From positions 876,034 through 940,033 of the forward strand of contig CP070842.1 in the NCBI GenBank assembly GCA_020342155.1: a DNA stretch of 64,000 bases. Direction: 5' to 3'. Shown piece by piece: positions 8,307-34,016 of the stretch (the first letter of the stretch is position 1; each line of letters opens with the position of its first letter). The stretch is from Dehalococcoidales bacterium. Lineage in GTDB: Bacteria > Chloroflexota > Dehalococcoidia > Dehalococcoidales > Fen-1064. The translations under genes were made by a program, and so were the position numbers. The notes under the pieces are model-generated. The model ran no database searches. It had not been told where the DNA came from and saw only the letters and a list, made by a program, of their open reading frames with translations.

Positions 8307-8684
8307 TTAACGCTGCTCCTCATGTTCGGATTACATCACCGCTACAGATTATCTCGCATGCTCGCATTCGGAGTATAGTACTCCCTTGATGACCGTGTCA
8401 ACAAAGTAGGATGAGTTAATCTCGGGGAATGAGAAGGCAGTATTTATCTGTGCCAGAGTCATGTAACAAGAGTACTTGTTGACCCAACAACTTCGTGTCT
8501 TAATCCACTGGACAAACATCGCGATGTCTGTCCAGCTATACGTATAGTTATTTGATACATTTTCCCTTTTCTGTGGGATGATACGCACAAAAAATGAAAC
8601 TATTTCAAATGGGCAGAAACATTTTAACAACTGAATGGGCTATTAGTCAGTGAAGTATATTTCTTATGTCCACCATGCAACTCT

Positions 8685-8837
8685 CTAATAATCCACAGAG
8701 CTGTTGGCAAGGTTTAACGGATTGAAGCCATCGGTGTCCATTATATCAATCTCAGATTTACCATCCCTGTCGGATCTGAAAGCAATTCTACCACTCAACG
8801 TAGTAGTCATACTTGGATTGCGACAACTAACAACCAT
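8685..8837 (-). pseudogene. Orphan single PD40 (TolB-type beta-propeller) repeat fragment, 50 codons
   Basis: Hand-translated sub-threshold ORF: MVVSCRNPSMTTTLSGRIAFRSDRDGKSEIDIMDTDGFNPLNLANSSVDY. The core GRIAFxSDRDGxxEIxxMDxDGxNxxxL matches the PD40 repeat pattern. It is far too short to be a propeller. Confidence 0.3.
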
Positions 8838-9148
8838 GGCTATTAGTCGTGAAAGAGTAATTGCATAGGTGAACAGTTACGATTTAATCACATATCTGTT
8901 ATCAGCTATATTTTGATGTCATTCATGTACTGGAACTCAAGTTCAGTTCTATAACTCAGGGCTGTCAATGTAGAGTAAAGGGGACTTTTTTAGCGTGAGA
9001 ATGCACAAATTACCTAATCACCGAATCCGCTAGGTGTACTCACTAAGATGAGCAAGCTGGCGGGTGTAAGACATTCTTACCAGTTTTAGTATAGTAATGA
9101 GAAGAACAGTTTTATATCTCGGTTCTTTTTTAAAAAGGAGGTGTCGAG

Positions 9149-9400
9149 ATGGCAGAGATTCCACAGAATATAAAGTTTTTACTTTTTGGATTCGGCCCCA
9201 AAATGCATGCGCAAATGGCATTAATTGCCAATCTCCTGGGTATCGTTACAACTGTACTGGGGATCATCAGTGCTGCCACGAAGAATCCACTTTGCCTGGG
9301 TACAACTAGCTGGTTTCTTTTAACCATTATTTTCTTCATATGGGGCCTATCATTTTGGTTTGCTGCGTATTTCGGGACAAAGGAGGGATATACCAAATAG
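9149..9400 (+). CDS. Small integral membrane protein (2-3 TM), unknown function
   Basis: A strong SD, AAAGGAGGTGTCGAG, precedes the ATG. The 83 aa include hydrophobic stretches ALIANLLGIVTTVLGIISAA and WFLLTIIFFIWGLSFWFAAYF. Confidence 0.6.
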   Translation: MAEIPQNIKFLLFGFGPKMHAQMALIANLLGIVTTVLGIISAATKNPLCLGTTSWFLLTIIFFIWGLSFWFAAYFGTKEGYTK

Positions 9401-9520
9401 TATTAACTCAACAGATTTTACTGGAATCTAGCGCTCTATTCATACCGCTTATTCCTGCCTGTTGTTGATTAGAGCATATTCATCTATTCCATTTGCTATA
9501 TTGGAGGAAGAGAGGAAGAA

Positions 9521-10711
9521 ATGACTAAAAACATAGCAATATCAGGTTTTGCCAAGCAAGGATTTAAAGCAGTGCAGGAAGCATTCATCAAGAATTTCGA
9601 GCGTTACCATGAGCTTGGAGCTGCCTGTTGTATCTACTACCGGGGTGAGAAAGTGGTCGACCTGTGGGGCGGCGTCCGTAACAAGGCGAAAAACGAACCC
9701 TGGGAAGAGAATACGATGGCTCTCGTCGCATCAACCACCAAGGGACTCGCCGGCCTATCAATGGCACTTGCTCACTCCCGCAAGTTATTTGATTACGACG
9801 AGCGTGTCTCGAAGTACTGGCCGGAGTTTGCACAGCAAGGGAAGGAAATGATTACAATACGACAACTACTTTCACACCAGGCTGGATTGTATGCATTGGA
9901 TGTGCTTCTGGACAAGAGTCTGGTTGCCAACCTTGACCAGCTGGCTGTTGTACTAGCGCAGCAGAAACCGGAATGGGAGCCGGGCACAAGACAAGCATAC
10001 CACGCCATCACACTTGGTTTCTACGAAAGCGAGTTGCTTCGTCGAGTCGATCCTGAACATCGCTCTCTAGGACAATTCTTCCAAGAGGAAATAGCTAGTC
10101 CACTGGGTCTTGATTTCTATATTGGGCTCCCTGAAGAGATTCCCAACGCCAGACTTGCAACACTTCATAGGGCTAATCTGGCAGGTGCGTTTTTCACCAT
10201 GCCTATCCCATTAGCGCTCTCGGCTATGAATCCGCGCTCACGGTTCCGCCGCTCGTTGTTGGGATCGTTGCCAGAAGAAAGAGATCATATCTACGCTCGA
10301 AATTTAGAGGTGCCGGCAGGAGGGGGTGTTGGAACCGCCCGCGCCATTGCTCAGGCGTATAGCGTATTCGCAACGGGCGGTCAAGAACTTGGTATACGTG
10401 AGGAAACACTACAACAGTTAATGGCATCTGCAGTTCCACCACTTCATGGATTCTATGATGAATGCCTGAAAGTAGAGATTGCTTTCTCACTTGGTTTCAT
10501 GAAACCAAGCCCTGAGAACACCTTCGGTCATCCAACCTCGTTTGGAGCCCCGGGAACAGGGGGGTCCTTTGGTTTTGCTGACCCCCATGCCAGGATTGGT
10601 TACGCGTACATCCCAAATCGGGTTCAATTCTACTTGACAGACCCAAGAGAAAAAGCCTTACGGACTGCAATGTATCATTCGGTTGGCGAGAAAGATCCAT
10701 ACCATGCTTAA
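9521..10711 (+). CDS. Serine hydrolase, beta-lactamase/esterase (class C / EstB-like) family
   Basis: The SxxK nucleophile motif is ASTTKGLAG. Length and overall layout fit the PF00144-type fold. SD is GGAGGAAGAGAGGAAGAA. Confidence 0.85.
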   Translation: MTKNIAISGFAKQGFKAVQEAFIKNFERYHELGAACCIYYRGEKVVDLWGGVRNKAKNEPWEENTMALVASTTKGLAGLSMALAHSRKLFDYDERVSKYWPEFAQQGKEMITIRQLLSHQAGLYALDVLLDKSLVANLDQLAVVLAQQKPEWEPGTRQAYHAITLGFYESELLRRVDPEHRSLGQFFQEEIASPLGLDFYIGLPEEIPNARLATLHRANLAGAFFTMPIPLALSAMNPRSRFRRSLLGSLPEERDHIYARNLEVPAGGGVGTARAIAQAYSVFATGGQELGIREETLQQLMASAVPPLHGFYDECLKVEIAFSLGFMKPSPENTFGHPTSFGAPGTGGSFGFADPHARIGYAYIPNRVQFYLTDPREKALRTAMYHSVGEKDPYHA

Positions 10712-10853
10712 GGAGAGTAACCCAACGATAGCAATTAGGTAAATTAGTCTTGGTAGCAACTACAGAGAGATTAAGAGATTACTTACTCACCTGCGGCATC
10801 ATCATTTTGCCGCTTCATGGTAGAATCGAATAATTGGAACGGAATACAGACAA

Positions 10854-10946
10854 ATGAAGAAGTGGCAAAAGATACTGATTATAGTACTCGGTCTTTCCAT
10901 TTTGCTTTTCGCCATTGGGTATATCTTCTGTGAAATCATTTTTTAA
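10854..10946 (+). CDS. Possible 30-aa hydrophobic micropeptide
   Basis: Hand-read ORF MKKWQKILIIVLGLSILLFAIGYIFCEIIF, below the track cutoff. TGGTAGAAT (extended -10-like) lies ~35 nt upstream. Speculative. Confidence 0.2.
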   Translation: MKKWQKILIIVLGLSILLFAIGYIFCEIIF

Positions 10947-11279
10947 TGTGACCTAACAAATATTGTCTGGGCTAACCTTGACATTACTCTGTTGTTCGCA
11001 ATCTCCTCATCAGGTCATACCAGCCTACAGCTCCTGAGAATATCATGACTGAGATAATTACTTAAAGGGTAGTATTTTTTATGGGAGCAGGTCGTATAGT
11101 CTCAGGAGGATGCAGAGATAGTAGTGCATACGTAAGAAGCCAATGCATAGAAAAGGAACATCTTCTTGAACAAACATCGGGATGACGATGTGGATGTGAA
11201 TATTAAAGACTTACACTTGTATCAAGTGTATCAAGGTCAATTGAAAAGGTATACATTCTGTACTAGAGTATGACGGTAA

Positions 11280-11609
11280 TTAGCAGGACCGCATAATCAG
11301 GACGGTTGAGACTATCGCCAGCGCGACCAGAAGTAATGCGATTAATGCCGCTCCCATAAATACATACCGTATTGGCAGGCGCAACTGTACCGTGTCTCTT
11401 GGCTTTGGGATCTTTGGAAGTTGTCTTTGCAGGGCCTCTCTAAGGGTGAGGTCTCCATTTATGGACTGGTCTTCCAGTCTTTCGTGCTCATCAATACGTC
11501 GTGAGGCAGTGTTTTCGACAGATGGGATATCCTTCTCCAGCCAGTATTCATAAAGTCTCTGGAATGTTCTTCTTGCCCCTCTTTTCCGCAGGTTATCGAG
11601 TATCTTCAT
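11280..11609 (-). CDS. Small tail-anchored membrane protein, unknown function
   Basis: 109 aa. The N-terminal part is soluble and charged. A single C-terminal TM is YVFMGAALIALLLVALAIVSTVLIM. It is divergent from the tubulin-like gene. Confidence 0.55.
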   Translation of the reverse strand: MKILDNLRKRGARRTFQRLYEYWLEKDIPSVENTASRRIDEHERLEDQSINGDLTLREALQRQLPKIPKPRDTVQLRLPIRYVFMGAALIALLLVALAIVSTVLIMRSC

Positions 11610-11775
11610 GTGGCATTTCCCCCCGGTAACGGAACTGTAGTTTCACTCAGTGTATCTAAGCCGACTGTTCCTGTCAATGCTTTATTGCGCTGGCAAAGAC
11701 TATGTATGAGGCTGGTTAACCGTGACTTCAATACTGGCTCACTAGTACTTTCGGGCTAATTTCTAGTATAAAGTA

Positions 11776-11804
11776 TTGACACCAGGTGTAGTTATGTATA
11801 GAAT
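11776..11804 (+). promoter_or_regulatory. Near-consensus sigma-70 promoter for the tubulin-like gene
   Basis: TTGACA (11776-11781), a 17-nt spacer, then TAGAAT (11799-11804). It lies ~58 nt upstream of the TTG start at 11863. Confidence 0.5.
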
Positions 11805-11862
11805 ACGCATATATAGTAAGTAAAGTGGAGCTGGTAAGATAAAGCCGGTAATGGAGTGACGT

Positions 11863-13038
11863 TTGAAATTACTGGTAATTGGTTGTGGGCAGTGCGGTGG
11901 TCGACTTGCTGATGAGTTCGCACGACGTGACAAAAGAGCACGCACAGATCGCGGCACTGAGATAGTTACAGAAGCCCTGGCTATCAACACGGATGTTGCG
12001 GATCTAAGCGGGCTGACCTTTATCAAACCCGACCACCGTCACCGGGTTCTCATCGGAGGTCGAAAGTCGGGTGGTCACGGTGTTGGCAAGATAAACGAAC
12101 TGGGCGCTGAGATAGCCAGGGAAGAAGGTGACCGGGTTTTAGATGGTGTAGCGCGGGCACAACAGCGCTCGGATACCGATGCCTTTTTAATGATTGCTGG
12201 TGCTGCCGGTGGCACTGGCTCCGGGGCGATTGCCGAGCTGGCGCAGCAGGTAAAGGAACGTTACGTAGACAAGCCGGTATATGCGCTTGTTGTTCTTCCT
12301 TTCCGCTACGAGGAGTTGACAGAGGATAGGTCTATCTACAATGTAGGGACATGCCTCAAGTCAATCTATCTGGTAGCGGATGCCGTATTTCTGGTGGATA
12401 ATCAGAGGTACGTCACGGACAAGGATTCCATCAGAAATAACCTGGCCCGGATTAATGCTCACGTGGTTGATCCGTTTTATAACTTGCTCTGTGCTGGCGA
12501 AGAAACGGACTCCAAGTTCATCGGCTCAAAGGTTCTGGATGCCGGCGATATAATTCAGACCCTATCAGGGTGGTCTGTTATCGGGCATGGTAGAGCATCG
12601 GTCTCACGAAGCAAACTCCCCTTCGGAGGGAAGTTGGATTTCAGGAATGCGGTTGCTGAAACCGACAAAGGAATTCATGCTATGAATCAGGCCAAGTCGG
12701 CTTTATCGCTGAAATGCCGACCTGACGATGCACGGCGAGCACTCTACCTCCTGACGGCACCTCATGAGCAAATGAGTATGGACCTGATAAGAGACCTGTC
12801 CTCATCCCTGAGAAGCATTGCCACCGATGCTACAATACGTAGTGGTGATTATCCCAGGGGGAAGGATTTTCTTGATGTTACCCTGGTACTATCTGAGCTG
12901 ACCAACTCGACGAAAATCTCGGATTACTTTAGCAGGACTCTCAGGTATATTTATCTTAAGAAGCGCAGGCGAGGAGAGATTGGAGAGCAGCAGGTCGGAT
13001 TTGACGAAGCCCTCCGTGATATCCCTCTGCTACTGTAA
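11863..13038 (+). CDS. Tubulin/FtsZ-superfamily GTPase, CetZ-like
   Basis: TTG start after GGAGTG. MKLLVIGCGQCGG is the T1 loop. GGHGVGKINELGAEIAREEGD matches my memory of the CetZ block KGHGVGxxNELGAEIAEED. MIAGAAGGTGSGA is the tubulin signature GGGTGSG. PVYALVVLP, FLVDNQ, VLDAGDIIQTL (T7-like acidic loop) and RSGDYP near the C-terminus also fit. The protein is collinear with haloarchaeal CetZ1 as I recall it. Confidence 0.8.
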   Translation: MKLLVIGCGQCGGRLADEFARRDKRARTDRGTEIVTEALAINTDVADLSGLTFIKPDHRHRVLIGGRKSGGHGVGKINELGAEIAREEGDRVLDGVARAQQRSDTDAFLMIAGAAGGTGSGAIAELAQQVKERYVDKPVYALVVLPFRYEELTEDRSIYNVGTCLKSIYLVADAVFLVDNQRYVTDKDSIRNNLARINAHVVDPFYNLLCAGEETDSKFIGSKVLDAGDIIQTLSGWSVIGHGRASVSRSKLPFGGKLDFRNAVAETDKGIHAMNQAKSALSLKCRPDDARRALYLLTAPHEQMSMDLIRDLSSSLRSIATDATIRSGDYPRGKDFLDVTLVLSELTNSTKISDYFSRTLRYIYLKKRRRGEIGEQQVGFDEALRDIPLLL

Positions 13039-13087
13039 GTTGCGTCTCCCCATCTGCCGGTGAACATTACCTCAGCCGAGCTGAGCG

Positions 13088-13564
13088 TTACTTGGCTACC
13101 TTCTCTCCCTGAAAGATACCCCAGGCTTCTTCTCGTGCATCAAGACATTTCGTCCAGGCCTGTTCTACGGTTGTCTTGTGGGCTTTCATGGCTTCTGCGG
13201 TACTCTTTTGATAGGCTACCTCAGCCCTCGCCAGCGCATCTCTGAATTCCTCTTCTGCTTGCTGTTCGGCCTGCTCCCGAGCTTTACGAGCCCTGTCCAG
13301 CGCCCTATCAAGAGCTTCGCTTGCCCGCTTCTCGGCCTCTCTATAGTCCTTCTCTAGCTGCTGTTCTTGCGTTTTATACCCGTTGGCTACCTCCTTCTGA
13401 GCCTGCCGGTACATTGTGTAGGCATTTTCTGCCTGGCTCAGAAGTTCTGCTAAATAGTTGCCGGCTTGCTCGGGAGAGCCTGCTTGTGGTTCGGCAGCCG
13501 TTTCTACAGCTTTTTCCTCAGCCTGTTTGGCAGCCTTCTCGGCTTGCCCCTTTTTGTTCATCAA
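13088..13564 (-). CDS. Coiled-coil protein (158 aa), unknown function
   Basis: Almost entirely A/E/K/Q/R-rich helical sequence, e.g. EKDYREAEKRASEALDRALDRARKAREQAEQQAEEEFRDALARAEVAY. It lies directly downstream of the repeat protein on the same strand, with an 81-bp gap. Confidence 0.65.
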   Translation of the reverse strand: MMNKKGQAEKAAKQAEEKAVETAAEPQAGSPEQAGNYLAELLSQAENAYTMYRQAQKEVANGYKTQEQQLEKDYREAEKRASEALDRALDRARKAREQAEQQAEEEFRDALARAEVAYQKSTAEAMKAHKTTVEQAWTKCLDAREEAWGIFQGEKVAK

Positions 13565-13645
13565 GAATACCCCCTCTATTTGTTGGTTTCCTTGTTATCC
13601 GTTTTTGCCAATAATACGCTTTTGTGAGTGACTGTTAAAGTGGTG

Positions 13646-15340
13646 CTAGTCTGTTTCGTCTTCCTCTTCTTCGGTTTCGTCGTCAGTCTGTCGTGTCTGG
13701 CCTGCTGCATACATTCTCGTAAGGGACTCCAGGCGGTCCTCGATATTAGCCTGCCTTCTACTCTTTTTCGATGTGGTTTTAGCAGCTTTACGTTCTGTCT
13801 TCTTGCTGGTGGCCTCAGAGACGTCGCCGACGTCTTCGAGGGCATCGCTAATCTCGTCGGCCTGGCTGTCAGAGGGTTGTTTTACCATCTCCAATTCTTC
13901 GGCGATATGGCTGACCTCCTGCCCAAGACTGACTGACTGTCCACCACGCCCCAGCAGCTTCTCGAATGCTCCTAACCATGCCTGGGCGGCTTCTTCGGCT
14001 CCCCTCTTGGATGCTTCGGTAGCTTCTCTGGCGGCTTGCAGAGATGCCTCGGCGGCTTTTTTAGCTGATTGACTTACTTCTTGTGCCCGACTGATAGCTT
14101 CCTGCGACGCTTGTGCCGATGTCTCAGCGGCCTCTCTAGCCGTTTCACTAGCTCTCCGGGCCATCTCCACGGACTCTTTCGACGCTGCCACCCACGAAGC
14201 AACTGTTTCAATGGCTGATTTGCTTATTTCCTCAACCTGTTTTATCGCGTCCTGTGATGCTCTTTTTGATTCCTCAACTGCTTCCCAGACTGATTTGCCC
14301 ATCTCCTCAGCCTTGCTTATCGCCTCCTGTGATACTCTTCGCGCCTCCTCGGCCGCTGTTTCGGCAACCTTGGAGGTTTCCGTAGCCTTGTCTATCGCTT
14401 CCTGCGAGGCTTGTCTGGACTCCTCAATGGCTGTTTCAGCAGTCCTGGTCATCTCTTCCGCCTTGCCCATCACTTCTTGGGACATCTTCTTTGATTCCTC
14501 AACGGTTGTCTCGGCAGCCCTGGTCATATCTTCCACCTTACTCATCACCTCCTGGGATGCCTTTGCCGATTCCTCAATGGCCGTCTCGACTGTTCTTGTC
14601 AGCTCTTCTGCCTTGTCTGTTGCCTGTTGAGACACCCTCTTTGATTCCTCGATTGCTTCCTCGGATGACCTGGTAGCACTTATTGCCTTCTCGAAGGCCC
14701 CGGTGTATGTCCTGGTCGCCTCCTCGGCTGATCTGGCGATGCTCTCAGCCTTACGCACCGCTTCCTGTGATGCCTGTACCGACGTCTCGACAGCCATCCG
14801 GGTTGTTCTACCTATGTCCTCGGCTCGGCCTACTGCTTCCTGAGAAGTGGCTACTGCCTGCTCGGCGGTCTCCAGGGCCATCTGAGCTGTTTTCTCTGCT
14901 TTTTCGCTAGCTTCTTGTGAAGTTTTTGTAGCTACCTCGGCGGCTTCTTTGGCCAGCCTGATTGCATCCTCTGCCCGGCTTATCGTCTTCTGTGACGTGT
15001 CTTTTGCCTCCTCAGCCGCATTTAGTGCTTTGCCAAAAGCCCTATTAGATGCGTCTAGCTCCTCTTTAGCTGCTTGGCTTGCTTCTTCTGCCTTGCTTAT
15101 TGCCTCCTGCGAGGCAAGCGATGCTACCTCAGCGGCTTCTTTGGCCTGCTGGCTGATCTCTTCAGCCCTGGCAATCATCTGCTGGGATATTTTTACTGAC
15201 TCCGCTGCAGCTTCCTTGGCCATTCGACCCAGCTTGTCGGCCTTGGCCACCACCTCCTCAAAGTCCCAGGTATCAGCAGGTGTGGGCGAGGGTTCGTCTA
15301 GTCGCTCGATTTCCGATGGCTCCATTTTCTTGCCTGTCAT
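13646..15340 (-). CDS. Large repeat coiled-coil protein (564 aa) with a basic segment and an acidic tail
   Basis: About 16 units of a 25-aa repeat (xxEESxxASQEAIxKAEExxxxAxx) span aa ~41-450. A basic stretch TSKKTERKAAKTTSKKSRRQ follows, then the acidic tail TDDETEEEEDETD. Confidence 0.75.
   Translation of the reverse strand: MTGKKMEPSEIERLDEPSPTPADTWDFEEVVAKADKLGRMAKEAAAESVKISQQMIARAEEISQQAKEAAEVASLASQEAISKAEEASQAAKEELDASNRAFGKALNAAEEAKDTSQKTISRAEDAIRLAKEAAEVATKTSQEASEKAEKTAQMALETAEQAVATSQEAVGRAEDIGRTTRMAVETSVQASQEAVRKAESIARSAEEATRTYTGAFEKAISATRSSEEAIEESKRVSQQATDKAEELTRTVETAIEESAKASQEVMSKVEDMTRAAETTVEESKKMSQEVMGKAEEMTRTAETAIEESRQASQEAIDKATETSKVAETAAEEARRVSQEAISKAEEMGKSVWEAVEESKRASQDAIKQVEEISKSAIETVASWVAASKESVEMARRASETAREAAETSAQASQEAISRAQEVSQSAKKAAEASLQAAREATEASKRGAEEAAQAWLGAFEKLLGRGGQSVSLGQEVSHIAEELEMVKQPSDSQADEISDALEDVGDVSEATSKKTERKAAKTTSKKSRRQANIEDRLESLTRMYAAGQTRQTDDETEEEEDETD
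13991..15220. repeat. Intragenic 75-bp tandem periodicity (25-aa repeat array)
   Basis: The plus-strand motif GAYTCCTCRA recurs at 14268, 14418, 14493, 14568 and 14643, in exact 75-bp phase. SQEA-type motifs occur at aa 52, 77, 141, 166, 191, 237, 262, 287, 312, 337, 362, 387 and 412. Confidence 0.7.
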
Positions 15341-15416
15341 CCTTTGCCTATTCTAAAACAGGCGGATTACTTTATCAATAGTTTTTTACAGGGTGTTTTA
15401 TCTGTGATAATGGTGC

Positions 15417-15425
15417 ATTATATCA
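15417..15425 (-). promoter_or_regulatory. Possible extended -10 element (TGATATAAT) for the coiled-coil operon
   Basis: The minus strand reads TGATATAAT ~77 nt upstream of the ATG at 15340. I saw no good -35. Confidence 0.25.
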
Positions 15426-15696
15426 CTCTTGCCCAGCGGAAGCCAGTTTATACAAACAAGCATTACGGTTCGGGATAATACTCACCGAACCCGCGTCTAG
15501 AGGGCATACTGCTGCCGATGTTTCACATTCGTAGGATTTACGCCTTACAGTATCTAAGTATCACTTAATAATATTGTATTTCACCAGTATGCGGAGTCAC
15601 ATCCACCAAAAGTACTAGTCTCTCTAGCCGATTAGTAACCTTTTTCGTTTGCACGCGCTGAAGGCAGTGGTTACAATTGTCTGTGGGAAATCTGTA

Positions 15697-17301
15697 ATGT
15701 CAGATATAAGCAAGTACCGGTTGATTTTAATGGCAGTCCTGGTGCCCATGACGGCAGTAGTCAGCGGGTTATACTGGGGTAGCTGGTGGAAAGAAGCATC
15801 AGCGCAGACAGATGGGACTTTGCAGTCGGATATTAGTAGTTTCATCTCCGAAAGAATGGCGGTTGAGAATATTCCCGGTGTGGCGGTGGTCGTTGTTCAG
15901 GACGCTAAGGTTATCTATCTGGAGGGATTCGGCACAGCCAGTCTCAAGGATCCGTCCCCGGTGACTCCCCAAACTGTGTTTGACTTGGCTTCGTGTAGTA
16001 AGTCATTCACCGCACTGGCGGTGCTTCTTCTTAGAGATGATGGACTGGTGGACCTGGACTTGCCTGTCAGCCACTATCTACCAGACTTCAAAACGGCTGA
16101 CCCTGAAACTGCTGAAGAGATTACGGTACGTTACCTGTTACATCATACGAGTGGTTTACCGGGAACGTTTGCCGAGCCTCTGGCCTTTCATTCGGGTGAT
16201 GATGCTATGGATAAGCTGGTGGCATCGCTGGACAGGGTACACCTGAATCGTGCTCCCGGGTTATTATTTGAATACAGTAATCTGAATTACAGCTTGCTTG
16301 GTGCTGTCATCGATGAAGTGTCCGGGGTCAGCTTTGAAGAATATCTGGAGCAGCGGGTCTTTGTCCCTCTGGGTATGATGCGTACCACTATGATTCCTAG
16401 CGAAGCTGATGTGATGGACAGGGCAGATGGTCACCAGCTCCTGTTCGGGCATGTTGTCACCAGAAATATTCCCGTCTATCGCAGTGTTGTCCCGGCAGGC
16501 TGGGTCATGTCTACCGCGGAGGATATGGGGAAGTGGCTCATCGTGCAACTGAGTGGTGGACGTATTGATGGTCGGCAGGTGGTACCATCGGAAACCATTA
16601 TGGAACTGCACACTCCAGGTGTGAGTTACGAGCAGAAGGGTGAGGAAGTTGGCTATGGTATGGGCTGGTTCATCGGTCTTTCTGATGCCGACTTGTCGCT
16701 CGTCTGGCACGGCGGGGATACGTCAAATTTCGCTGCCGACATGGTCATGGTACCTGAACATCAACTGGGAGTGGCTGTACTGGTGAACAGTCAGAATAGC
16801 TCTAGGGTGCATAGTCTTGCGCCTGATGTTGCCAGCCTGATTCTGGGGAAGGAATTGGTGCTGCCGACGGCTCCGTGGTGGGGCTCCTGGCGGAGTGCGG
16901 ACACTATGGCGATAGCTGCGGCAGCAACTTCCGTGGCGGCTTTCATTGCTTTGGTAGTTTACTTCTGGTGGCGTTGGCGGCGATTTCGCCTTTGGCGGAC
17001 TGCCTATCTGAGGACCATGCGCAGGAGAACGCTGAGGATATGGCGGATGGCACTGCCACTGACACCTCTGGTACTACTGGCAACCGCGGTGACCGCTATA
17101 TGGGTAGTTGTATGGTTGTTGTTTGGCTTTAACCTGTTCCGGGTGTTGATGCGGTTTGGCAGCTTTGCCCCTCCCGGTGTCTGGATTGCGGGGTGGATGA
17201 CTTTTGGCGTTATCAGTATATGGGCGCTCGCTCTGGCTGGTCAGACGCTCTTTCGGTACTGGATAAGACACAGGGTCCGAAGGTTGCGTTCTCAGAGCTG
17301 A
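15697..17301 (+). CDS. Beta-lactamase-fold serine hydrolase with N-terminal anchor and C-terminal polytopic membrane domain
   Basis: SxxK motif is ASCSKSFTALAV, with YSNLNY and HGGDT boxes. The C-terminal ~140 aa have 4 hydrophobic helices separated by W/R-rich linkers (WWRWRRFRLWRTAYLRTMRRRTLRIWRM). I preferred the ATG at 15697 over the TTG at 15649. Confidence 0.8.
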   Translation: MSDISKYRLILMAVLVPMTAVVSGLYWGSWWKEASAQTDGTLQSDISSFISERMAVENIPGVAVVVVQDAKVIYLEGFGTASLKDPSPVTPQTVFDLASCSKSFTALAVLLLRDDGLVDLDLPVSHYLPDFKTADPETAEEITVRYLLHHTSGLPGTFAEPLAFHSGDDAMDKLVASLDRVHLNRAPGLLFEYSNLNYSLLGAVIDEVSGVSFEEYLEQRVFVPLGMMRTTMIPSEADVMDRADGHQLLFGHVVTRNIPVYRSVVPAGWVMSTAEDMGKWLIVQLSGGRIDGRQVVPSETIMELHTPGVSYEQKGEEVGYGMGWFIGLSDADLSLVWHGGDTSNFAADMVMVPEHQLGVAVLVNSQNSSRVHSLAPDVASLILGKELVLPTAPWWGSWRSADTMAIAAAATSVAAFIALVVYFWWRWRRFRLWRTAYLRTMRRRTLRIWRMALPLTPLVLLATAVTAIWVVVWLLFGFNLFRVLMRFGSFAPPGVWIAGWMTFGVISIWALALAGQTLFRYWIRHRVRRLRSQS

Positions 17302-17329
17302 ACTACGCAGTTTGATATGGTAGAAGATA

Positions 17330-17403
17330 TGGGCGGTAGAGGACTTGAACCTCTGACCCCCTGCGTGTAAAGCAGGTGCTCTAACCAACTGAGCTAACCG
17401 CCC
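17330..17403 (-). tRNA. tRNA-Val (anticodon TAC)
   Basis: Folded by hand. Acceptor GGGCGGT/ACCGCCC, D stem GCTC/GAGC, anticodon stem CCTGC/GCAGG with loop TTTACAC, T arm AGAGG-TTCAAGT-CCTCT. CCA is not encoded. Confidence 0.9.
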
Positions 17404-17407
17404 ATAA

Positions 17408-17484
17408 TGGCGCGCTTGGCGGGGCTCGAACCCACGGCCTCAGCCTCCGCAGGGCTGCGCTCTATCCAACTGAGCTACAAGCGC
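17408..17484 (-). tRNA. tRNA-Arg (anticodon GCG)
   Basis: Acceptor GCGCTTG/CAAGCGC, D stem GCTC/GAGC, anticodon stem CAGCC/GGCTG with loop CTGCGGA, T arm GTGGG-TTCGAGC-CCCGC. The 3' GCCA is encoded. Confidence 0.88.
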
Positions 17485-17495
17485 TAAAATAAAAG

Positions 17496-17582
17496 TGGTG
17501 CCGAAGGTGAGATTTGAACTCACACGCCCTCAAAGGACACTACGCCCTGAACGTAGCGCGTCTGCCATTCCGCCACTTCGGC
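17496..17582 (-). tRNA. tRNA-Leu (anticodon CAG), long variable arm
   Basis: Acceptor GCCGAAG/CTTCGGC, anticodon stem CTACG/CGTAG with loop TTCAGGG, long variable arm, T arm GTGAG-TTCAAAT-CTCAC. ACCA is encoded. Confidence 0.9.
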
Positions 17583-17640: not shown

Positions 17641-19179
17641 TCAAAAACCGGTGGGCCAGGGCTGAAGATTTTTCTTGCTGATGAAGCCGTTCTTGCGTTC
17701 ATGCATTATTTCCAGGCAGTCAATGATATACTTCCTGGTGTCTCGAGGGTCAATGACGTCTTCAAGCAATCCAACACTGGCGGCATCCCAGGGGGTACTT
17801 CCCAACTCCATCTGCCTTATGTACTTCTGTCTCTCCGCCTCGGGGTCTTCTGCTTCCTCTATCCTGTTGCGAAAAGCCACGTTGGCGGCCGATTCCGGTG
17901 ACATGAAGCTGATTTCACCGGTAGTCATCGATACTAGAAAGTCGGCACCACAATTGGAGCCACACATGTTGGAAATGGCCATACCGTAGGCTTTACGCAC
18001 GATTACCGTTATCTTGGGAACGCTGGCCAGTGCCAGGGCTTCCATCCAGGTCATTATCTTTAGAGAAATCTTACGTCGCTCTGCTGGCCGGCCCACGAGG
18101 AAGCCGGGAGTATCAGCCAGGTGGATTAGTGGAATGTTATAGGTATCGCAGAGGCAGATGAAGCTGGCAGCCTTTTCGCACTCGTCAGCACCGGCGGCTC
18201 CGGCGTTATGCATTGTCTGGCTGGCGATAATGCCCACGACTCTTCCATTCATACGGGCGAGACATGTAATCAGTGCCTTGCCAAAGAACGGCTTCAGCTC
18301 GAAGAACTTGCCATCATCGACTACTTCCTTGATGACCTGGTGCATGTCATAGACACGGTTTGCCTTGTCCGGGATAATCTTTAGCAGTTTCTCTGACTTT
18401 CGGTCGAGAGGGTCATTAGTTATTACACGAGGTGGTTCTTCGTCGCAGGTCTGGGGCATATAGCTCAACATTTCACGAATAATCTGCATACAGTGCTCGT
18501 CATCTTCGGCGAAGGCGTCCACCAGGCCGGTGACTTCTGCGTGCAGCTGCCAGCCGCCGAGCTCCTCCGGGGTTGTCTTCTCTTCCAGGGCTACTTCGAG
18601 TACCCTTGGTCCCGAAACGGCCATGCAGGTTCCTTTGACCATCACCACTAGGTCGGAGATAGCTGCCGTCCACGTAGGGTCACCGAAGCAGTTGCCCATG
18701 ATGGCGGTGATATGGGGTGTCCGCCTGGGGTGGAGCAGGTTCTGGGCAGGGTAGGTGACTGCTAGCACGCCAATAGAGCCTTGGACAGTCTGCATATTGA
18801 CACCGCCGCTCTCACCGAGCCGGATGACCGGGAAGTTTTGCTCCTGGGTCAATTCGGGGTATAGTCCCCTGGAGCGGCCCCTGACATTGCCGCTACCGGC
18901 GAGGATGGTGTTGTCATCGGCACGGACAATAACAGTTCGACCATCTATCTTACCGTACCCATTTACCTTATTAGCAGGCATTTCCCGTCCATCGGGAGAA
19001 CGTAACTGCCGCAGGAGGCCCTCCTCCATCCATGTCCCCGGGTCGACTAGTTTCTCTATCCGCTCCCTGACAGTGATGTGGCCACGCTCGCGGTGTCGGG
19101 CTATCCGTTCCGGGCTCCCCATCTGGAGGCCTATTTCCTGGCGCCTCTTAAGCTCGTCTAGTGCAGCCTGTTTGTCCAT
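17641..19179 (-). CDS. Acyl-CoA carboxyltransferase (propionyl-CoA carboxylase beta / methylmalonyl-CoA decarboxylase alpha family)
   Basis: Two-domain crotonase-like carboxyltransferase pattern: GKIDGRTVIVRADDNTILAGS, ITAIMGNCFG, PLIHLADTPGFLVG, VIVRKAYG. The start is set at the ATG (MDKQAALDEL) 8 nt after GGAGG. The track's 118-aa N-terminal extension is rejected. Confidence 0.85.
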   Translation of the reverse strand: MDKQAALDELKRRQEIGLQMGSPERIARHRERGHITVRERIEKLVDPGTWMEEGLLRQLRSPDGREMPANKVNGYGKIDGRTVIVRADDNTILAGSGNVRGRSRGLYPELTQEQNFPVIRLGESGGVNMQTVQGSIGVLAVTYPAQNLLHPRRTPHITAIMGNCFGDPTWTAAISDLVVMVKGTCMAVSGPRVLEVALEEKTTPEELGGWQLHAEVTGLVDAFAEDDEHCMQIIREMLSYMPQTCDEEPPRVITNDPLDRKSEKLLKIIPDKANRVYDMHQVIKEVVDDGKFFELKPFFGKALITCLARMNGRVVGIIASQTMHNAGAAGADECEKAASFICLCDTYNIPLIHLADTPGFLVGRPAERRKISLKIMTWMEALALASVPKITVIVRKAYGMAISNMCGSNCGADFLVSMTTGEISFMSPESAANVAFRNRIEEAEDPEAERQKYIRQMELGSTPWDAASVGLLEDVIDPRDTRKYIIDCLEIMHERKNGFISKKNLQPWPTGF

Positions 19180-19300
19180 TTCTACGCCTCCCATACTAAT
19201 TTCTGCGTTTAGACTGAAAGTATACCGCCTTTGACTTACTGTCTTCAAATTGACCTTCGCCAAGTATGGCATTAGAATGATAATAGGTTGGAGAAGTGAG

Positions 19301-20566
19301 ATGTTGTTTGAGAAGACTACCCTGAATAATGGGCTGCGTCTTATTACCCATGCCATGCCCCACACCCGCTCGGTGTCTATCTGCATCTTCCTTGCGGTAG
19401 GCTCCCGGTACGAGACGGGGGCGGAGGCTGGTATCTCACACTTTATTGAGCACCTCTGTTTTAAGGGTACACCGAAACGGGCTACACCCAAGGATATTGC
19501 AGCTGCAATAGAGGGAGTAGGTGGTATCCTCAACGCTGCTGCTGATAGGGAGTTGACCCTCTACTGGTGTAAGGTAGCCCAGCCCCACTTCCTGCTGGCT
19601 CTCGATGTGCTGGCGGATATTCTGCTGAATTCCAAGCTTGACCCGGCAGATATCGAACGAGAGCGCCAGGTTATCATTGAGGAAATCCATGCGATAAAAG
19701 ACTCTCCTTACCAGCGGGTAAGCATGCTGACTGACGAGCTTCTCTGGCCAGACCATCCCCTGGGGCGTGATGTCGCAGGAAATGAGGAATCGGTTCTCTC
19801 GATTACTCAGGATATGATAACAGGTTTCCTGGCGGGCAGGTACCTGCCTGCCAGCACTGTCGTTGCTATTGCCGGTGATATCCAGCATGAGGGAGTTGTT
19901 GGTGCGGTCAATGAGGCTTTCGGTGGTTGGAGCGGTCAGCAGCCAGCCGGTGGATACCTGGCACATGAGGAGAGACCAAATCCACGGTTGGGGATGGAGG
20001 TTCGAGACACCGAACAAACACACCTGTGTCTGGCGCTGCCGGGGCTGCCCTTGCTACATCCGAAACGCTATGCCCTCGACCTGCTCAATACTATCCTGGG
20101 CGAGGGTATGAGCAGTCGGTTGTTTGTTGAAATACGTGATAACCTCGGCTTAGCCTACAGTATACACAGTTACGTCGAACACCTTCACGACACCGGGGCA
20201 ATGATTATCTACGCTGGGGTGGAGCATGAGAAGCTGCCTGTAGCTATCAAGGCCATACTGGAGCAACTGGCATCACTTTATAAGCCCGTCTCTAACTCCG
20301 AGCTCACCAAGGTAAAGGAGTTGTCCAAGGGACGGCTGTTGCTGCGGATGGAAGATAGTCGCAGTGTCGCTGGATGGGCGGGTGGACAGGAAATTCTCAC
20401 CAACAGGATTCTCAGTGTTGACCAGGTGGTGTCTATTATTGATGCTATTACTGCTGAGCAGGTAGTGGAGGTTGCGCAGGAACTGATAGTTGAGGACCGG
20501 CTCCGTCTGGCAGTGGTCGGGCCGGTAAAGGATGGTGATGAGCTGAAGGGATTGCTCAGACTGTAA
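19301..20566 (+). CDS. M16-family zinc peptidase (pitrilysin-like)
   Basis: The inverted zinc motif HxxEH appears in GISHFIEHLCFKG, with the typical N-terminus LNNGLRLIT. The start is at ATG 19301 after GGAGAAG. Confidence 0.85.
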   Translation: MLFEKTTLNNGLRLITHAMPHTRSVSICIFLAVGSRYETGAEAGISHFIEHLCFKGTPKRATPKDIAAAIEGVGGILNAAADRELTLYWCKVAQPHFLLALDVLADILLNSKLDPADIERERQVIIEEIHAIKDSPYQRVSMLTDELLWPDHPLGRDVAGNEESVLSITQDMITGFLAGRYLPASTVVAIAGDIQHEGVVGAVNEAFGGWSGQQPAGGYLAHEERPNPRLGMEVRDTEQTHLCLALPGLPLLHPKRYALDLLNTILGEGMSSRLFVEIRDNLGLAYSIHSYVEHLHDTGAMIIYAGVEHEKLPVAIKAILEQLASLYKPVSNSELTKVKELSKGRLLLRMEDSRSVAGWAGGQEILTNRILSVDQVVSIIDAITAEQVVEVAQELIVEDRLRLAVVGPVKDGDELKGLLRL

Positions 20567-31428: not shown

Positions 31429-33000
31429 TCACAGATTAATGTTGGCGAACTTCTTCCACGTCTTGGCGTTGTGGGCTTTATTGTCTTTATTTTTATCTTT
31501 AAGAATGTCCAGTGAACGATTTATCACCTTCCTGGTGTCACTGGGCATTATAATGTCATCGATATAGCCCCGCTCGGCGCCATGATAGGGGTTCTCATAG
31601 AGGTCGCTGAACTCCTGTACACGACGTTCGCGGGTCTCGTCCGGATTGTCCGACTCCCTTATCTCCCGTGCGAAGATAACGCTGGCGGCAGTGTCGGCGC
31701 CAACGATGGTGACGCGGGCGGTTGGCCAGGCAAACACGAAATCGGCACCGATGCTTTTGTCCAACATACCATAGTGCGCCCCGGCGTATGACTTCCTGAC
31801 CATGATTGAGATAAGGGGTATGGTCGCTTCGGCCCAGGCGAAGAGCAGCTTTGAGCCGTGGCGCAGGATACCCTTCCAGTCCTGCTCAGAGCCAATCATG
31901 TAACCGGGGCAGTCTCCCAGTGTAATCATCGGGATATTAAAGAGGTCGCAGAACCGGATGAACCGGGCGGCTTTATCGGCGGCATCGATGTTAATCACCC
32001 CGGCAGCGTGCATCGGCTGGTTAGCAAAGATGCCCACCGGGCACCCGTTGAAGCGGGCAAAGCCGGTTATTACGCTCCGGGCATGGAGAGCGTGCGATTC
32101 GCAGAATTGGCCGTCATCAACAATTGCCCTGATGACCTTCATCATGTCATAGGGGCGGGTTGGCTGGTCAGGGATGATGGTGTTCAACTCGGGTATCTCC
32201 CGTTCAGGGTCGTCGTCGGTCTCAAGTCGTGGCGGCGTCTCCCGGTTATTGGACGGGAAGAAGGACAACAGTTCTTTGGCCTTATCAATGGCGTCTTTGT
32301 CATCGTCGACCACGAAGTGCGTACAGCCCGATTTCACTGCGTGTGCCTTGTAGCCGGAGAGCTCTTCGAGCGTGATTTTCTCACCGAGCTGGGTCTCGAC
32401 GAAAGCAGAACCGGCAATACCCATGAAACCGGTATCCTTGCACTGGATAAGGAAGTCCTGCATCACGGGGTGATAAGCCTGCCCGCCGAGGCAGGGGCCC
32501 ATGAGCAGGGCGATTTGCGGCACCACTCCTGAAGCCAGGATTTGTGACCTGAAGGTCCAGCCGTAGCCTTCCAGCGTATCTATCCCTTCCTGGAGTCGGG
32601 CGCCTCCGGAGTCGTTCATGCCGATGAATGGCCAGCCTTTTTCCCGGGCGAGATTGAGGGTATTTGAGAGCTTCCGGCCATGCTGCTCGCCGAAGGTCCC
32701 GGCCATGGATGTGTAGTCCTCGGCCATGGCGACCACATAACGACCGTTTACCTTGCCGAAACCGGTAATAATGCCGTCAGCCGGGATTTCCCGCTTGTCC
32801 AGCCCGAAAGCAGTCGTGCGGTGCTTGGCGAATAGACCAATTTCGGTGAAAGTACCGAGGTCAAAGAGGTAGTCGATTCTTTCCCGCGCGGAAAGTTGCC
32901 CGCCCTCGTGTCGTCTCTCAATGGCAGCGACGCCACCCATCTCCATTATCTTTTGTCGTTTCTGTTTATACTGTTCAATCAGGTCTTCTGTCGATGACAT
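31429..33000 (-). CDS. Acyl-CoA carboxyltransferase (propionyl-CoA carboxylase beta / methylmalonyl-CoA carboxyltransferase family), paralogue 2
   Basis: GGQLSARERIDYLFD, GKVNGRYVVAMAEDYTSMAGT, ALLMGPCLGG, PMITLGDCPGYMIG, IMVRKSYG. The start is the ATG at 33000 (MSSTEDLIEQ) after AGGGGGG. Confidence 0.85.
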   Translation of the reverse strand: MSSTEDLIEQYKQKRQKIMEMGGVAAIERRHEGGQLSARERIDYLFDLGTFTEIGLFAKHRTTAFGLDKREIPADGIITGFGKVNGRYVVAMAEDYTSMAGTFGEQHGRKLSNTLNLAREKGWPFIGMNDSGGARLQEGIDTLEGYGWTFRSQILASGVVPQIALLMGPCLGGQAYHPVMQDFLIQCKDTGFMGIAGSAFVETQLGEKITLEELSGYKAHAVKSGCTHFVVDDDKDAIDKAKELLSFFPSNNRETPPRLETDDDPEREIPELNTIIPDQPTRPYDMMKVIRAIVDDGQFCESHALHARSVITGFARFNGCPVGIFANQPMHAAGVINIDAADKAARFIRFCDLFNIPMITLGDCPGYMIGSEQDWKGILRHGSKLLFAWAEATIPLISIMVRKSYAGAHYGMLDKSIGADFVFAWPTARVTIVGADTAASVIFAREIRESDNPDETRERRVQEFSDLYENPYHGAERGYIDDIIMPSDTRKVINRSLDILKDKNKDNKAHNAKTWKKFANINL

Positions 33001-33035
33001 TCTAGACCCCCCTTTTTTCCCCATTGGGTTCTCTA

Positions 33036-34016
33036 TCAAAGCTGGACAAGCCCCATATTCTGCTTGACTTCACCGAGGGTTTCCCGGGCAATAACCCGGG
33101 CACGTTGAGCGCCGTCAGCGAGTACTTCGGCTATGTGCTGTGGCTTAGCGGCCAGTTCAGCCCTCTTCTCACGCAGGCCTTGAAGACTGGCGTTGAGGTG
33201 TTCGGCCAGCAATTTTTTACAGTCGACGCACCCGATATCGGCGGAACGGCACTGCTGGGAAATATCGGCCAGTTGTGCTTCACTGAAGTAGCCGTGGAGG
33301 GAGTAGATGTTGCATACTTCTGGGTGACCGGGGTCATTCCTGTAGCGGCGGGCGGGGTCGGTGACCGCCGTCATGATACGCTCCTCTGTTTCCTCGGGGG
33401 TGGCTGCCAGTTCGATAGCATTGCCGGTCGATTTCCCCATCTTGTCACTTCCGTCCAGACCAACAATCCGTGGGAAGGAGGTGAGCTTGGCGACTGGCTC
33501 GATAAGGGTCTCACCAAACTGGTTATTGAAACGGCGGACAATCTCCCGGGCAAGTTCAAGATGCGGTAGCTGGTCTTCACCAATCGGCACTACCTCACCC
33601 TTGTAAAGGGTAATATCGGCTGTCTGCAGGACAGGGTAGCCGACTAGCCCATAGTTAACGTTCTCCGGTTGCTGTTTCACTTTTTCTTTGAAGGTGGGAA
33701 CACGCATCAGCCAGCTTATTGGGGTTACCATGCTGAGCAGGGTGTGCAGCTCCATCACTTCAGGTACGTGGGACTGGATAAAGATAATGCTTCTCTCCGG
33801 ATCCATGCCCGCTGCCAGCCAGTCGATCACTATCTCCCGGATGTATTCCTGGAGCTGGCTGGTATCCTCCATTGAGGTCAGGGCATGAATATCGACAACG
33901 CAGTAGATGCAGTCGTATTCGTCCTGTAGGGCAACGTAGTTCTGTATTGCCCCAAGATAGTTACCGATGTGTTGCTTAGCGGTGGGCCGGGCTCCCGAAA
34001 AGACACGCTTTTTCAT
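33036..34016 (-). CDS. trpS: Tryptophanyl-tRNA synthetase
   Basis: RVFSGARPTAKQHIGNYLGA carries the HIGH-type motif, and KMGKS is the KMSKS-type motif. The start is set at MKKRVF (34016). Confidence 0.9.
   Translation of the reverse strand: MKKRVFSGARPTAKQHIGNYLGAIQNYVALQDEYDCIYCVVDIHALTSMEDTSQLQEYIREIVIDWLAAGMDPERSIIFIQSHVPEVMELHTLLSMVTPISWLMRVPTFKEKVKQQPENVNYGLVGYPVLQTADITLYKGEVVPIGEDQLPHLELAREIVRRFNNQFGETLIEPVAKLTSFPRIVGLDGSDKMGKSTGNAIELAATPEETEERIMTAVTDPARRYRNDPGHPEVCNIYSLHGYFSEAQLADISQQCRSADIGCVDCKKLLAEHLNASLQGLREKRAELAAKPQHIAEVLADGAQRARVIARETLGEVKQNMGLVQL

Follow-up and report, generated by a model that had tools for sequence, protein, structure and literature searches.

The subject of this study is an open reading frame (ORF) on the forward strand of a 64,000-nucleotide stretch of DNA (hereafter the window; positions 876,034 to 940,033 of contig CP070842.1, assembly GCA_020342155.1) from a Dehalococcoidales bacterium. 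The ORF encodes an intact CetZ-family GTPase of the tubulin/FtsZ superfamily that is under strong constraint; upstream of it, on the opposite strand, lies a gene for a small membrane protein, and downstream, also on the opposite strand, lie genes for two helical-repeat proteins that we term cc1 and cc2. The window is of plainly bacterial (Dehalococcoidia, Chloroflexota) origin, and elsewhere it encodes DnaG, RpoD, MutS, RecG, GroEL, FakA/DegV, ArgJ/B/D/G/H, TrpS and ArgS together with three tRNAs. An earlier note, made from the letters of this stretch, had described a CetZ-like gene embedded among bacterial genes, and the presence of dnaG-rpoD, mutS, recG, groEL and fakA/degV bears out that setting. 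The bounds of the ORF, its TTG start and its product of 391 amino acids (aa) were matched exactly when the ORFs of the window were checked, and the product contains all the sequence blocks that had been quoted: GCGQCGG at aa 7-13, AGGTGSG at aa 115-121 and LDAGDIIQTL at aa 225-234, as well as RVLIG, GHGVGKINELGAEIARE, DAFL, PVYALVVLP, GDYP and an end in DIPLLL.

The domain content of the product sets it apart from FtsZ. In a Pfam profile search the Tubulin/FtsZ GTPase domain (PF00091) scored 97.8 bits against a cut-off of 33 bits, and the CetZ-type C-terminal domain that follows it (PF21011, CetZ_C) scored 62.2 bits (E 5.5e-17) against a cut-off of 21.6 bits. No match to FtsZ_C or Tubulin_C was found in the product; Tubulin_2 (PF13809) reached 18.6 bits over a 40-residue stretch only, below its 27-bit cut-off, and the NCBIfam ftsZ equivalog (TIGR00065) reached 49.3 bits of the 295.2 bits required, over the N-terminal domain only. 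Among 64 homologues, residues G7, G9, Q10, C11, G12, G13 and G116-G121 of the GTP-binding loops are invariant, as are D226, A227, G228, D229 and I230 of the T7 (synergy) loop. In the phmmer alignment D229 lies opposite E218 of Haloferax volcanii CetZ1, the residue changed in the GTPase-dead variant CetZ1 E218A. Since the GTP-binding loops and the T7 acid are intact in both of the paralogues that we define below as A and B, the two proteins should hydrolyse GTP in polymers.

Sequence and predicted structure point to the same relatives. Searched with phmmer against all sequences in the PDB, the product has H. volcanii CetZ1 (4B46) as its best match (1.6e-42, collinear over aa 1-354), followed by CetZ2 (4B45; 6e-27) and Methanosaeta thermophila CetZ (3ZID; 8e-16), whereas FtsZ, gamma-tubulin, Asgard tubulin, BtubA/B and TubZ/RepX trail at 1e-9 to 1e-3 (gamma-tubulin 4e-6, BtubB 2e-4, RepX 3e-3). 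An AlphaFold2 model built on a diverse alignment of 77 sequences has a mean predicted local distance difference test score (pLDDT) of 92.9 and a predicted template-modelling score of 0.92; it replaced an unusable model (pLDDT 58) from an alignment that held only homologues 63-97% identical. When the model was compared with the PDB by Foldseek, ranks 1-4 were taken by 4b46, 4b45 and 3zid, with target-normalised template-modelling (TM) scores of 0.92, 0.93 and 0.80, respectively; FtsZ structures appeared from rank 5 on, and tubulins ranked below FtsZ. The CetZ_C match, the failed FtsZ equivalog and the primacy of CetZ in both sequence and fold together uphold the assignment of the protein as CetZ-like rather than FtsZ, and the weak sequence matches and lower structural ranks of TubZ and BtubAB make it distinct from these as well.

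Table 1. Features of the CetZ-like locus (positions are those of the window; aa, amino acids)
Feature	Position	Strand	Remarks
109-aa tail-anchored membrane protein	11280..11609	-	Divergent from CetZ-like gene; internal EKDIPS motif
Sigma-70-like promoter candidate TTGACA-17-TAGAAT	11776..11804	+	11/12 positions; upstream of CetZ-like gene
Shine-Dalgarno-like GGAG	11853..11856	+	7-10 nt before TTG; read from sequence
CetZ-like tubulin-superfamily GTPase, A-type paralogue	11863..13038	+	391 aa; TTG start; stop included
Tubulin/FtsZ GTPase domain	11869..12408	+	aa 3-182; Pfam PF00091, E 1.3e-27
T1 loop GCGQCGG	11881..11901	+	Within GTPase domain
T4 signature AGGTGSG	12205..12225	+	aa 115-121; within GTPase domain
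CetZ-type C-terminal domain	12424..12930	+	aa 188-356; Pfam PF21011 CetZ_C
T7 (synergy) loop LDAGDIIQTL	12535..12564	+	aa 225-234; D229 predicted catalytic acid
Extreme C-terminal peptide RDIPLLL	13015..13035	+	aa 385-391; predicted adaptor-docking motif after variable linker
cc1, Ala/Glu-rich helical protein	13088..13564	-	158 aa; convergent with CetZ-like gene; conserved partner by gene order
cc2, acidic helical-repeat protein	13646..15340	-	564 aa; conserved partner by gene order

Relatives of the gene were collected by a scan that retained one genome per species and yielded 79 loci, nearly all from Dehalococcoidia or from metagenome-assembled genomes (MAGs) of Dehalococcoidales. In the closest of these, L001, a 263-kb contig, the protein is 97% identical to the window product. 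Against L001 and L002, the two closest relatives, the ratio of nonsynonymous to synonymous substitution rates (dN/dS) of the CetZ-like gene is 0.03-0.07, tighter than in any of the neighbouring genes; purifying selection on the gene is very strong, and by every sequence criterion the gene appears functional. The TTG start is backed by 125 orthologues whose products begin, at this same point, with MKL(L/V)V(I/V)G; their start codon is mostly ATG and, in L001 and L002, TTG; the orthologues also carry GGAG or GGTG at equal spacing before the start. The promoter claimed upstream was found as well: it is the best such site within 11200-15700 and, by its consensus match, a candidate promoter.

To place the protein in the family, 1.84 billion cluster representatives were searched exhaustively; 699 clusters passed at E <= 1e-3, of which 63 also passed at E <= 1e-30; identified representatives are two from Dehalococcoidia (P0121, P0130), one from Nitrososphaerales (P0155), a Halogeometricum CetZ (P0169) and one from Bathyarchaeia (P0192). 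In a neighbour-joining tree of 202 sequences (Kimura correction, rooted on E. coli FtsZ, with an unreliable branching order among the archaeal groups), the labelled archaeal sequences, CetZ1 and CetZ2 included, lie on one side, and all Dehalococcoidia sequences lie opposite, together with several other representatives. Two of the latter appear from their gene contexts to belong to bacterial hosts: P0141 has MacB/FtsX, an RND adaptor and two FtsH genes nearby, and P0286 has GntR and SBP_bac_5. The bacterial clade was recovered in 89.5% of bootstrap replicates; it spans Dehalococcoidales and GIF9 and is separate from canonical FtsZ. Within it A and B form distinct clades, and the window gene falls in the A-type clade. 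Because the Dehalococcoidia sequences do not fall inside the canonical (euryarchaeal) CetZ clade in this tree, 'CetZ-like' or 'bacterial CetZ subfamily' is the safe label; and because monophyly of the archaeal side is weak (14.5%), the bacterial clade may be sister to archaeal CetZ diversity or nested in it. The archaeal host that would be expected of a family called archaea-specific (PMC9856176, PMC11621097) was not found, the host being a member of the Dehalococcoidia.

The group itself had been reported. Santana-Molina et al. 2023 (PMC9871819) mention CetZ-like proteins of 'Chloroflexota-Dehalococcoidia' in one sentence, as 'sparse paraphyletic groups' that were not analysed. Their hidden Markov model (HMM) for the CetZ C-terminus matches Chloroflexota sequences, with Dehalococcoidales members at about 1e-19 to 1e-21; the supplement lists matches in Dehalococcoides mccartyi (WP_010936364.1, WP_011309103.1), in three proteins of Dehalogenimonas sp. 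WBC-2 and in D. lykanthroporepellens, and WP_041331079.1 is present in their trees. Their maximum-likelihood trees support the Dehalococcoidia clade at 100% and place it beside CetZ-like sequences of Altiarchaeota. Within the stored part of their CetZ-C search, Dehalococcoidales, GIF9 and UBA3495 have matches, whereas SAR202, Tepidiformales and UBA6077 have none. The order UBA3495 (also Dehalococcoidia) matches the HMM at about 1e-37, groups with Hydrothermarchaeota CetZ in the published tree and is a second, separate bacterial CetZ-like group; some Patescibacteria are matched too (e.g. PIQ91898.1 at 6e-13), and taken together the matches in Patescibacteria and UBA3495 make it seem that bacterial CetZ-like genes are of more than one origin. 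Databases name members of the family 'tubulin/FtsZ family protein', 'cell division protein FtsZ' or 'Tubulin-like protein CetZ', the last being the UniRef name of the D. mccartyi copy. No functional study of a bacterial CetZ-like member was found in the literature. The earlier note's suggestion of a bacterial tubulin homologue distinct from FtsZ, TubZ and BtubAB therefore stands, whereas its novelty has to be given up in part, since the protein falls in the group already in PMC9871819 and in the databases, which the note had named as a refuting outcome: the gene is a member of a published, database-annotated yet essentially unstudied bacterial CetZ-like group. What is new here is the conserved gene module, the FtsZ-like tail and the constraint seen in dN/dS.

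The search also brought up a distant CetZ_C relative (P0149/P0303; 418 aa, 38% identical) that is multi-copy and occurs on at least nine contigs of one sample (2544-3800 in L081; 10001-11257 in L082 and L083). It is always followed by an ORF of 324-327 aa without a Pfam match, and its surroundings hold resolvases, IS66 and IS605/TnpB transposases and a group II intron reverse transcriptase; from this context it looks like a mobile-element-borne tubulin system.

Clustering of the ORFs of all 79 loci reveals a conserved gene module. Of the 79 loci, 64 have the cc1 gene at position +1 from the CetZ-like gene and 64 have cc2 at position +2, in each case on the opposite strand; 57 loci contain the pair, 71 contain one or both, and the loci that lack cc1 or cc2 are mostly truncated contigs. 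At least two CetZ-like genes are found in 50 of the 79 loci, the second usually straight after cc2, so that the genes run A, cc1, cc2, B; a second copy in tandem before A is seen in L003, L004 and L075. The usual upstream flank consists of ligA, pth, the gene for a SLOG protein, eno, (MBL, HGD-D) and gap, and the usual downstream flank of dnaX, ybaB, recR, recO and lysS; the ancestral site of the module is between ligA-pth-eno-gap and dnaX-ybaB-recR. The lineage of the window, a divergent subclade of A, has A-cc1-cc2 outside this gap|dnaX slot, with PF00144 serine-hydrolase genes and a cluster of tRNAs on its flanks. The GC content at third codon positions (GC3) of the CetZ-like gene, cc1 and cc2 is 0.52-0.55, compared with 0.59-0.71 for groEL, recG, mutS, rpoD, argS and argH. 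Together with the relocation, this may mean that the A-cc1-cc2 block has moved within the class, and the lower GC3 could also be plain codon bias.

The products of cc1 and cc2 are both under purifying selection (dN/dS 0.11-0.30 and 0.13-0.16, respectively), and neither contains a transmembrane segment. Across loci cc1 measures about 150-190 aa. It is rich in Ala, Glu, Lys, Arg and Gln and is built of about eleven 11-residue repeats (QAxxAYxxAEx) with a hydrophobic period of 3.68, which indicates hendecad-type helices, and its C-terminal part has a conserved EQAW...EQAWQIY block. It has no Pfam match and no relative in the PDB; a word search gave 15 homologues, all hypothetical proteins, of which the only one named by organism is from a Dehalococcoidales MAG. 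The longer cc2 (about 560-910 aa across loci) is acidic, with 120 Asp and Glu against 78 Lys and Arg, and contains about sixteen 25-residue repeats (SQEAIsKAEEis...); autocorrelation peaks at a lag of 25 in 56 of 59 homologues, hydrophobic residues recur with a period of 3.56-3.58, near 25/7, and a tandem repeat of period 75 is seen in the DNA at 14385-14618. Its C-terminus carries a conserved IExRLESLxRMY block. There is no Pfam match for cc2, and its PDB matches are designed helical bundles only, to be read as similarity of composition and repeats only.

The small membrane protein on the other side of the CetZ-like gene carries a transmembrane segment at its C-terminus (Kyte-Doolittle maximum over 19 residues 2.97) and stands beside a CetZ-like gene in the window, L001 and L002 alone, which leaves its membership in the CetZ-like system uncertain. 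The pattern [KR]DIP[STL] that it shares with the CetZ-like tail has no other occurrence among the roughly 276,000 residues that the non-CetZ ORFs of the loci encode, where about 0.8 such matches would be expected by chance; the protein with its KDIPS could be a lineage-specific anchor or competitor, or the motif could be due to chance. Between the two divergent genes lies a 14-nt inverted repeat (11672-11685 and 11768-11781, TGTCAATGCTTTAT and ATAAAGTATTGACA, 93% complementary). Each arm carries a TTGACA -35 box, one per strand, which makes the pair candidates for mirror-image divergent promoters, 82 nt apart, of the CetZ-like gene and the gene for the small membrane protein. Straight after cc2 in the window, L001 and L002 lies a gene (15649-17301, + strand) for a 550-aa PF00144 protein (beta-lactamase / DD-peptidase-like) with a long Trp/Arg-rich, multi-span hydrophobic C-terminal region, an odd finding where peptidoglycan has reportedly been lost.

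In 125 full-length A and B paralogues the tail (K/R)DIP(S/T/L)L(L/I) is about 90-99% conserved, and the residues before it (aa ~360-383) vary; a conserved tail after some 20 variable residues is what a docking peptide carried by a flexible linker looks like. The tail had been proposed as an anchor for a partner or for the membrane, and its near-invariance after a variable linker speaks for the former, while seven residues are too few for the latter. The same core is seen in canonical FtsZ of related genomes, which ends in ...ELDIPSFLRTQSS (UBA1222) and ...ELDVPSFLRHEALS (MGML01) in Dehalococcoidales and in ...SLDVPSFLRRSASK in GIF9 UBA5629, that is, in LDIPSFLR or LDVPSFLR; the genomes MGML01 and UBA5629 have both canonical FtsZ and a CetZ-like protein. 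E. coli FtsZ ends in ...DIPAFLRKQAD. The C-terminal peptide of FtsZ is the binding site of FtsA, ZipA, SepF and other partners.

From these observations we hypothesize that the CetZ-like protein forms a GTP-dependent filament, probably tethered through an FtsZ-type adaptor, that shapes or constricts the envelope of peptidoglycan-free cells, and we regard this reading as rather probable. The protein would bind GTP and polymerise head-to-tail into protofilaments, in which D229 of one subunit would complete the active site of the next; as D229 is kept in both paralogues, homopolymers or copolymers are possible. The flexible linker and the invariant DIPSLL-type peptide would then dock the filament onto a membrane adaptor. 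Given that FtsZ of Dehalococcoidales ends in DIPSFLR, this adaptor is most likely that of FtsZ, and the leading candidate is FtsA, because Dehalococcoidales genomes keep ftsA beside ftsZ. The cc1 and cc2 proteins would act as filament-associated scaffolds or bundlers, and the whole system would organise the shape, and possibly the constriction, of the envelope in peptidoglycan-free cells with an S-layer-like wall, a role that would parallel the CetZ-dependent control of shape in S-layer-walled haloarchaea. The physiology of the hosts accords with such a scheme: Wiegand et al. 2023 (PMC10608941) describe Dehalococcoidales as being without peptidoglycan and dcw genes, with mraZ-mraW-ftsA-ftsZ kept and with an archaeal-like S-layer wall.

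Proteome data from D. mccartyi can be set beside this proposal, as an indirect correlation of protein level with cell form. In strain BTF08, Kruse et al. 2021 (PMC8163811) found an 'FtsZ/Tubulin GTPase' (btf_0551), distinct from FtsZ (btf_0595), to be abundant together with the nearby hypothetical protein btf_0548 in pure culture, where the cells are discs, and both to be reduced or undetected in co-culture, where the cells are barrel-shaped. Identity between the proteins of D. mccartyi and Dehalogenimonas and the family members in our loci is 56-72%, and D. mccartyi carries a B-type member (P0428) in the gap|dnaX slot. Between this B-type gene and dnaX (11384-12480 in the assemblies L086 and L087) lie genes for a DUF2089 protein, an ORF of 89-94 aa and a SHOCT-like DUF2089-C protein. 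We consider that the proteome data fit a role in either shape or division; a shape cytoskeleton is favoured, and support of division is its main rival.

Several points weigh against this reading. The association of cc1 and cc2 with CetZ-like genes is one of gene order only, and in the D. mccartyi assemblies the gap|dnaX slot holds a single B-type copy without cc1 and cc2 beside it. The 64-kb window itself contains no second CetZ-like paralogue, no ftsZ and no ftsA. The likeness of the tail to the FtsZ peptide spans 5-6 residues only, and representatives of the archaeal-type CetZ clade end in related acidic-hydrophobic tails (DPLF, DIDSLL, DIPPLL), so that the motif may be an ancestral trait of the family with a different partner. 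The equation of btf_0551 with the B-type copy P0428, and of btf_0548 with the SHOCT-like ORF, fits by annotation and by the gene order in L086/L087, not by sequence; and as FtsZ itself also changes between the two cultures (PMC8163811), roles in shape and in division are not separated by these data.

The strongest alternative, which we hold to be possible though clearly less probable, is that the CetZ-like proteins are division paralogues that act inside the FtsZ ring as extra constricting or stabilising subunits, like the second FtsZ of wall-less archaea. The tail core in common with Dehalococcoidales FtsZ would allow one adaptor to recruit both proteins to the same place, the tubulin-like GTPase changes together with FtsZ in the D. 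mccartyi proteome, and in most genomes the module adjoins replication and repair genes (dnaX, recR, ligA); moreover, Brown & Duggin 2023 cite work in which two FtsZ homologues appear to matter in archaea that have no pseudopeptidoglycan wall. However, the C-terminal domain and the fold are of CetZ type and not of FtsZ type, the gene lies outside the mraZ-mraW-ftsA-ftsZ cluster, and the helical-repeat partners are not known divisome proteins. Against it also stands that haloarchaeal CetZ1 is dispensable for division.

A filament that moves chromosomal or mobile DNA in the manner of TubZ, with the helical-repeat proteins as adaptors, is improbable for the chromosomal module, beside which no TubR-like DNA-binding gene and no iteron- or centromere-like array was found, the repeats around it being chance-level two-copy families. 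Across the order the module occurs stably, in a single copy, on the core chromosome, and neither phage nor plasmid genes adjoin it in the window. What speaks for such a role is the reported link between the C-termini of TubZ and CetZ (PMC9871819), the departure of A-cc1-cc2 from the ancestral slot with its lower GC3, and the multi-copy relative P0149/P0303, which lies with its partner of 324-327 aa amid resolvases, transposases and a group II intron; these distant mobile-element relatives may indeed work as TubZ does.

That the gene is an artefact or a passenger, whether a chimeric joint at the AT-rich flanks (GC 0.44-0.48 over 8-12 kb, against about 0.53 elsewhere, with 2.8 kb directly upstream missing from the closest relative) or a recent archaeal transfer now decaying, is scarcely credible in view of its low dN/dS, of nearest relatives that are all bacterial (archaeal CetZ is about 30-35% identical to the window protein) and of a gene order that recurs elsewhere. 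The order small membrane protein, CetZ-like gene, cc1, cc2, PF00144 is common to the window, L001 and L002; L001 is about 85% identical to the window in its DNA and L002 is also diverged at the nucleotide level, so that these are independent assemblies that cannot have a chimeric joint in common. Family members are also present in a complete 1.12-Mb chromosome (L075, CP070693.1), on two further long contigs (1.56 and 2.3 Mb) and in L087, an assembly of a D. mccartyi genome. The chimera of archaeal and bacterial DNA that the earlier note had feared is thereby ruled out.

The flanks of the module show further differences from the relatives. The AT-rich stretch 8460-11253 (GC 0.44-0.46, about 2.8 kb) is absent from L001, where the counterparts of 8459 and 11254 adjoin, and from L002 too, by gene order; it contains a gene for a 396-aa PF00144 'beta-lactamase' family serine hydrolase (9521-10711) and is probably a small insertion. 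On the other side, a cluster of tRNA-Val(TAC), tRNA-Arg(GCG) and tRNA-Leu(CAG) lies at 17329-17582 (- strand), and nucleotide similarity to L001 ends within tRNA-Val, at 17376, so the break in synteny coincides with a tRNA gene. Beyond it are two paralogues with PF01039 carboxyltransferase domains, 12 kb apart and both on the - strand (17641-19533, 630 aa; 31429-33039, 536 aa). As listed, the first shares about 280 nt with the beginning of an M16 peptidase ORF (19250-20566), and its true start is therefore probably farther downstream.

Returning to the proposed envelope filament, we put forward tentatively, and with less confidence than the proposal itself, a more specific form of it: a dedicated bacterial CetZ cytoskeleton of two paralogues and two helical-repeat proteins that would use the FtsZ adaptor by means of a mimicking DIPSLL tail, and that would have taken over morphogenesis (e.g. 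of the disc shape) and/or would aid constriction after the loss of peptidoglycan. If true, haloarchaea with their combination of S-layer and CetZ would have a counterpart among bacteria. The CetZ family has been described as archaea-specific, yet it has a large, vertically inherited bacterial clade in Dehalococcoidia, a lineage that includes the bioremediation organisms Dehalococcoides and Dehalogenimonas and that has lost peptidoglycan and has an archaeal-style S-layer envelope. The clade thus offers a candidate system for form and division in wall-less bacteria of defined shape, with members in culturable strains, and it bears on how often tubulin-family cytoskeletons have crossed between the domains of life.

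Of the known systems, the most remote are TubZ/PhuZ, BtubA/B, the tubulins and the Tubulin_2 proteins, which belong to the same superfamily and give weak sequence matches only. TubZ and PhuZ come with a TubR gene, centromere repeats and a plasmid or phage context, whereas the window gene lies in the core chromosome with none of these around it; tubulins, BtubAB and Asgard tubulins have the Tubulin_C domain that is missing in the window protein, and match it at 4e-6 or more weakly. Bacterial FtsZ is closer: it has the same superfamily fold and GTPase motifs (Foldseek E about 1e-21 to 1e-19) and likewise ends in a flexible linker and a docking peptide, with the core D-I-P-x-(F/L)-L. The window protein differs from it in the absence of FtsZ_C and in failing the equivalog, and its gene is not in a dcw or ftsA-ftsZ cluster; the neighbours are cc1, cc2 and PF00144 hydrolases, and canonical FtsZ is encoded separately in related Dehalococcoidales and GIF9 genomes.

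Archaeal CetZ (4B46, 4B45, 3ZID) has the same two-domain architecture, a Tubulin GTPase domain followed by CetZ_C, and the collinearity that the earlier note had described is confirmed by the alignment with CetZ1, in which the blocks MKLxxIGxGQxGG, RVLIG, GHGVGxxNELGAEIA, GGTGSG, PVYxLxxLP and GDYP are held in common and the T7 acids correspond. The folds match with target-normalised TM scores of 0.92-0.93 and a root mean square deviation of 2.3-2.5 Å, both proteins have a short acidic-hydrophobic tail after a flexible linker, and the hosts are alike in having an S-layer-type wall without murein. However, the window protein is from a bacterium, is only 27-35% identical to archaeal CetZ and belongs to a clade of its own, and the tail of its family is DIPSLL, like that of bacterial FtsZ, rather than DPLF or IDGLL. 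The gene neighbourhoods differ as well: those reported for archaeal cetZ contain F420 biosynthesis genes, a sugar epimerase and type IV pili, whereas the window family is accompanied by helical-repeat genes and a second paralogue.

The closest system is the 'Chloroflexota-Dehalococcoidia' group of PMC9871819, which is the group of the window protein. It includes D. mccartyi WP_010936364.1 and WP_041331079.1 and the Dehalogenimonas sp. WBC-2 proteins AKG53714, AKG53596 and AKG53580; Dehalococcoidia homologues are 54-97% identical to the window protein and have the architecture, the length of about 390 aa and the KDIPSLL tail in common with it. The window gene is A-type and accompanied by cc1 and cc2, whereas the D. 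mccartyi copy is B-type and stands alone in the gap|dnaX slot. In contrast to the published description of the group as 'sparse', we find the family to be dense across Dehalococcoidales, split into A and B paralogues and set in a conserved module.

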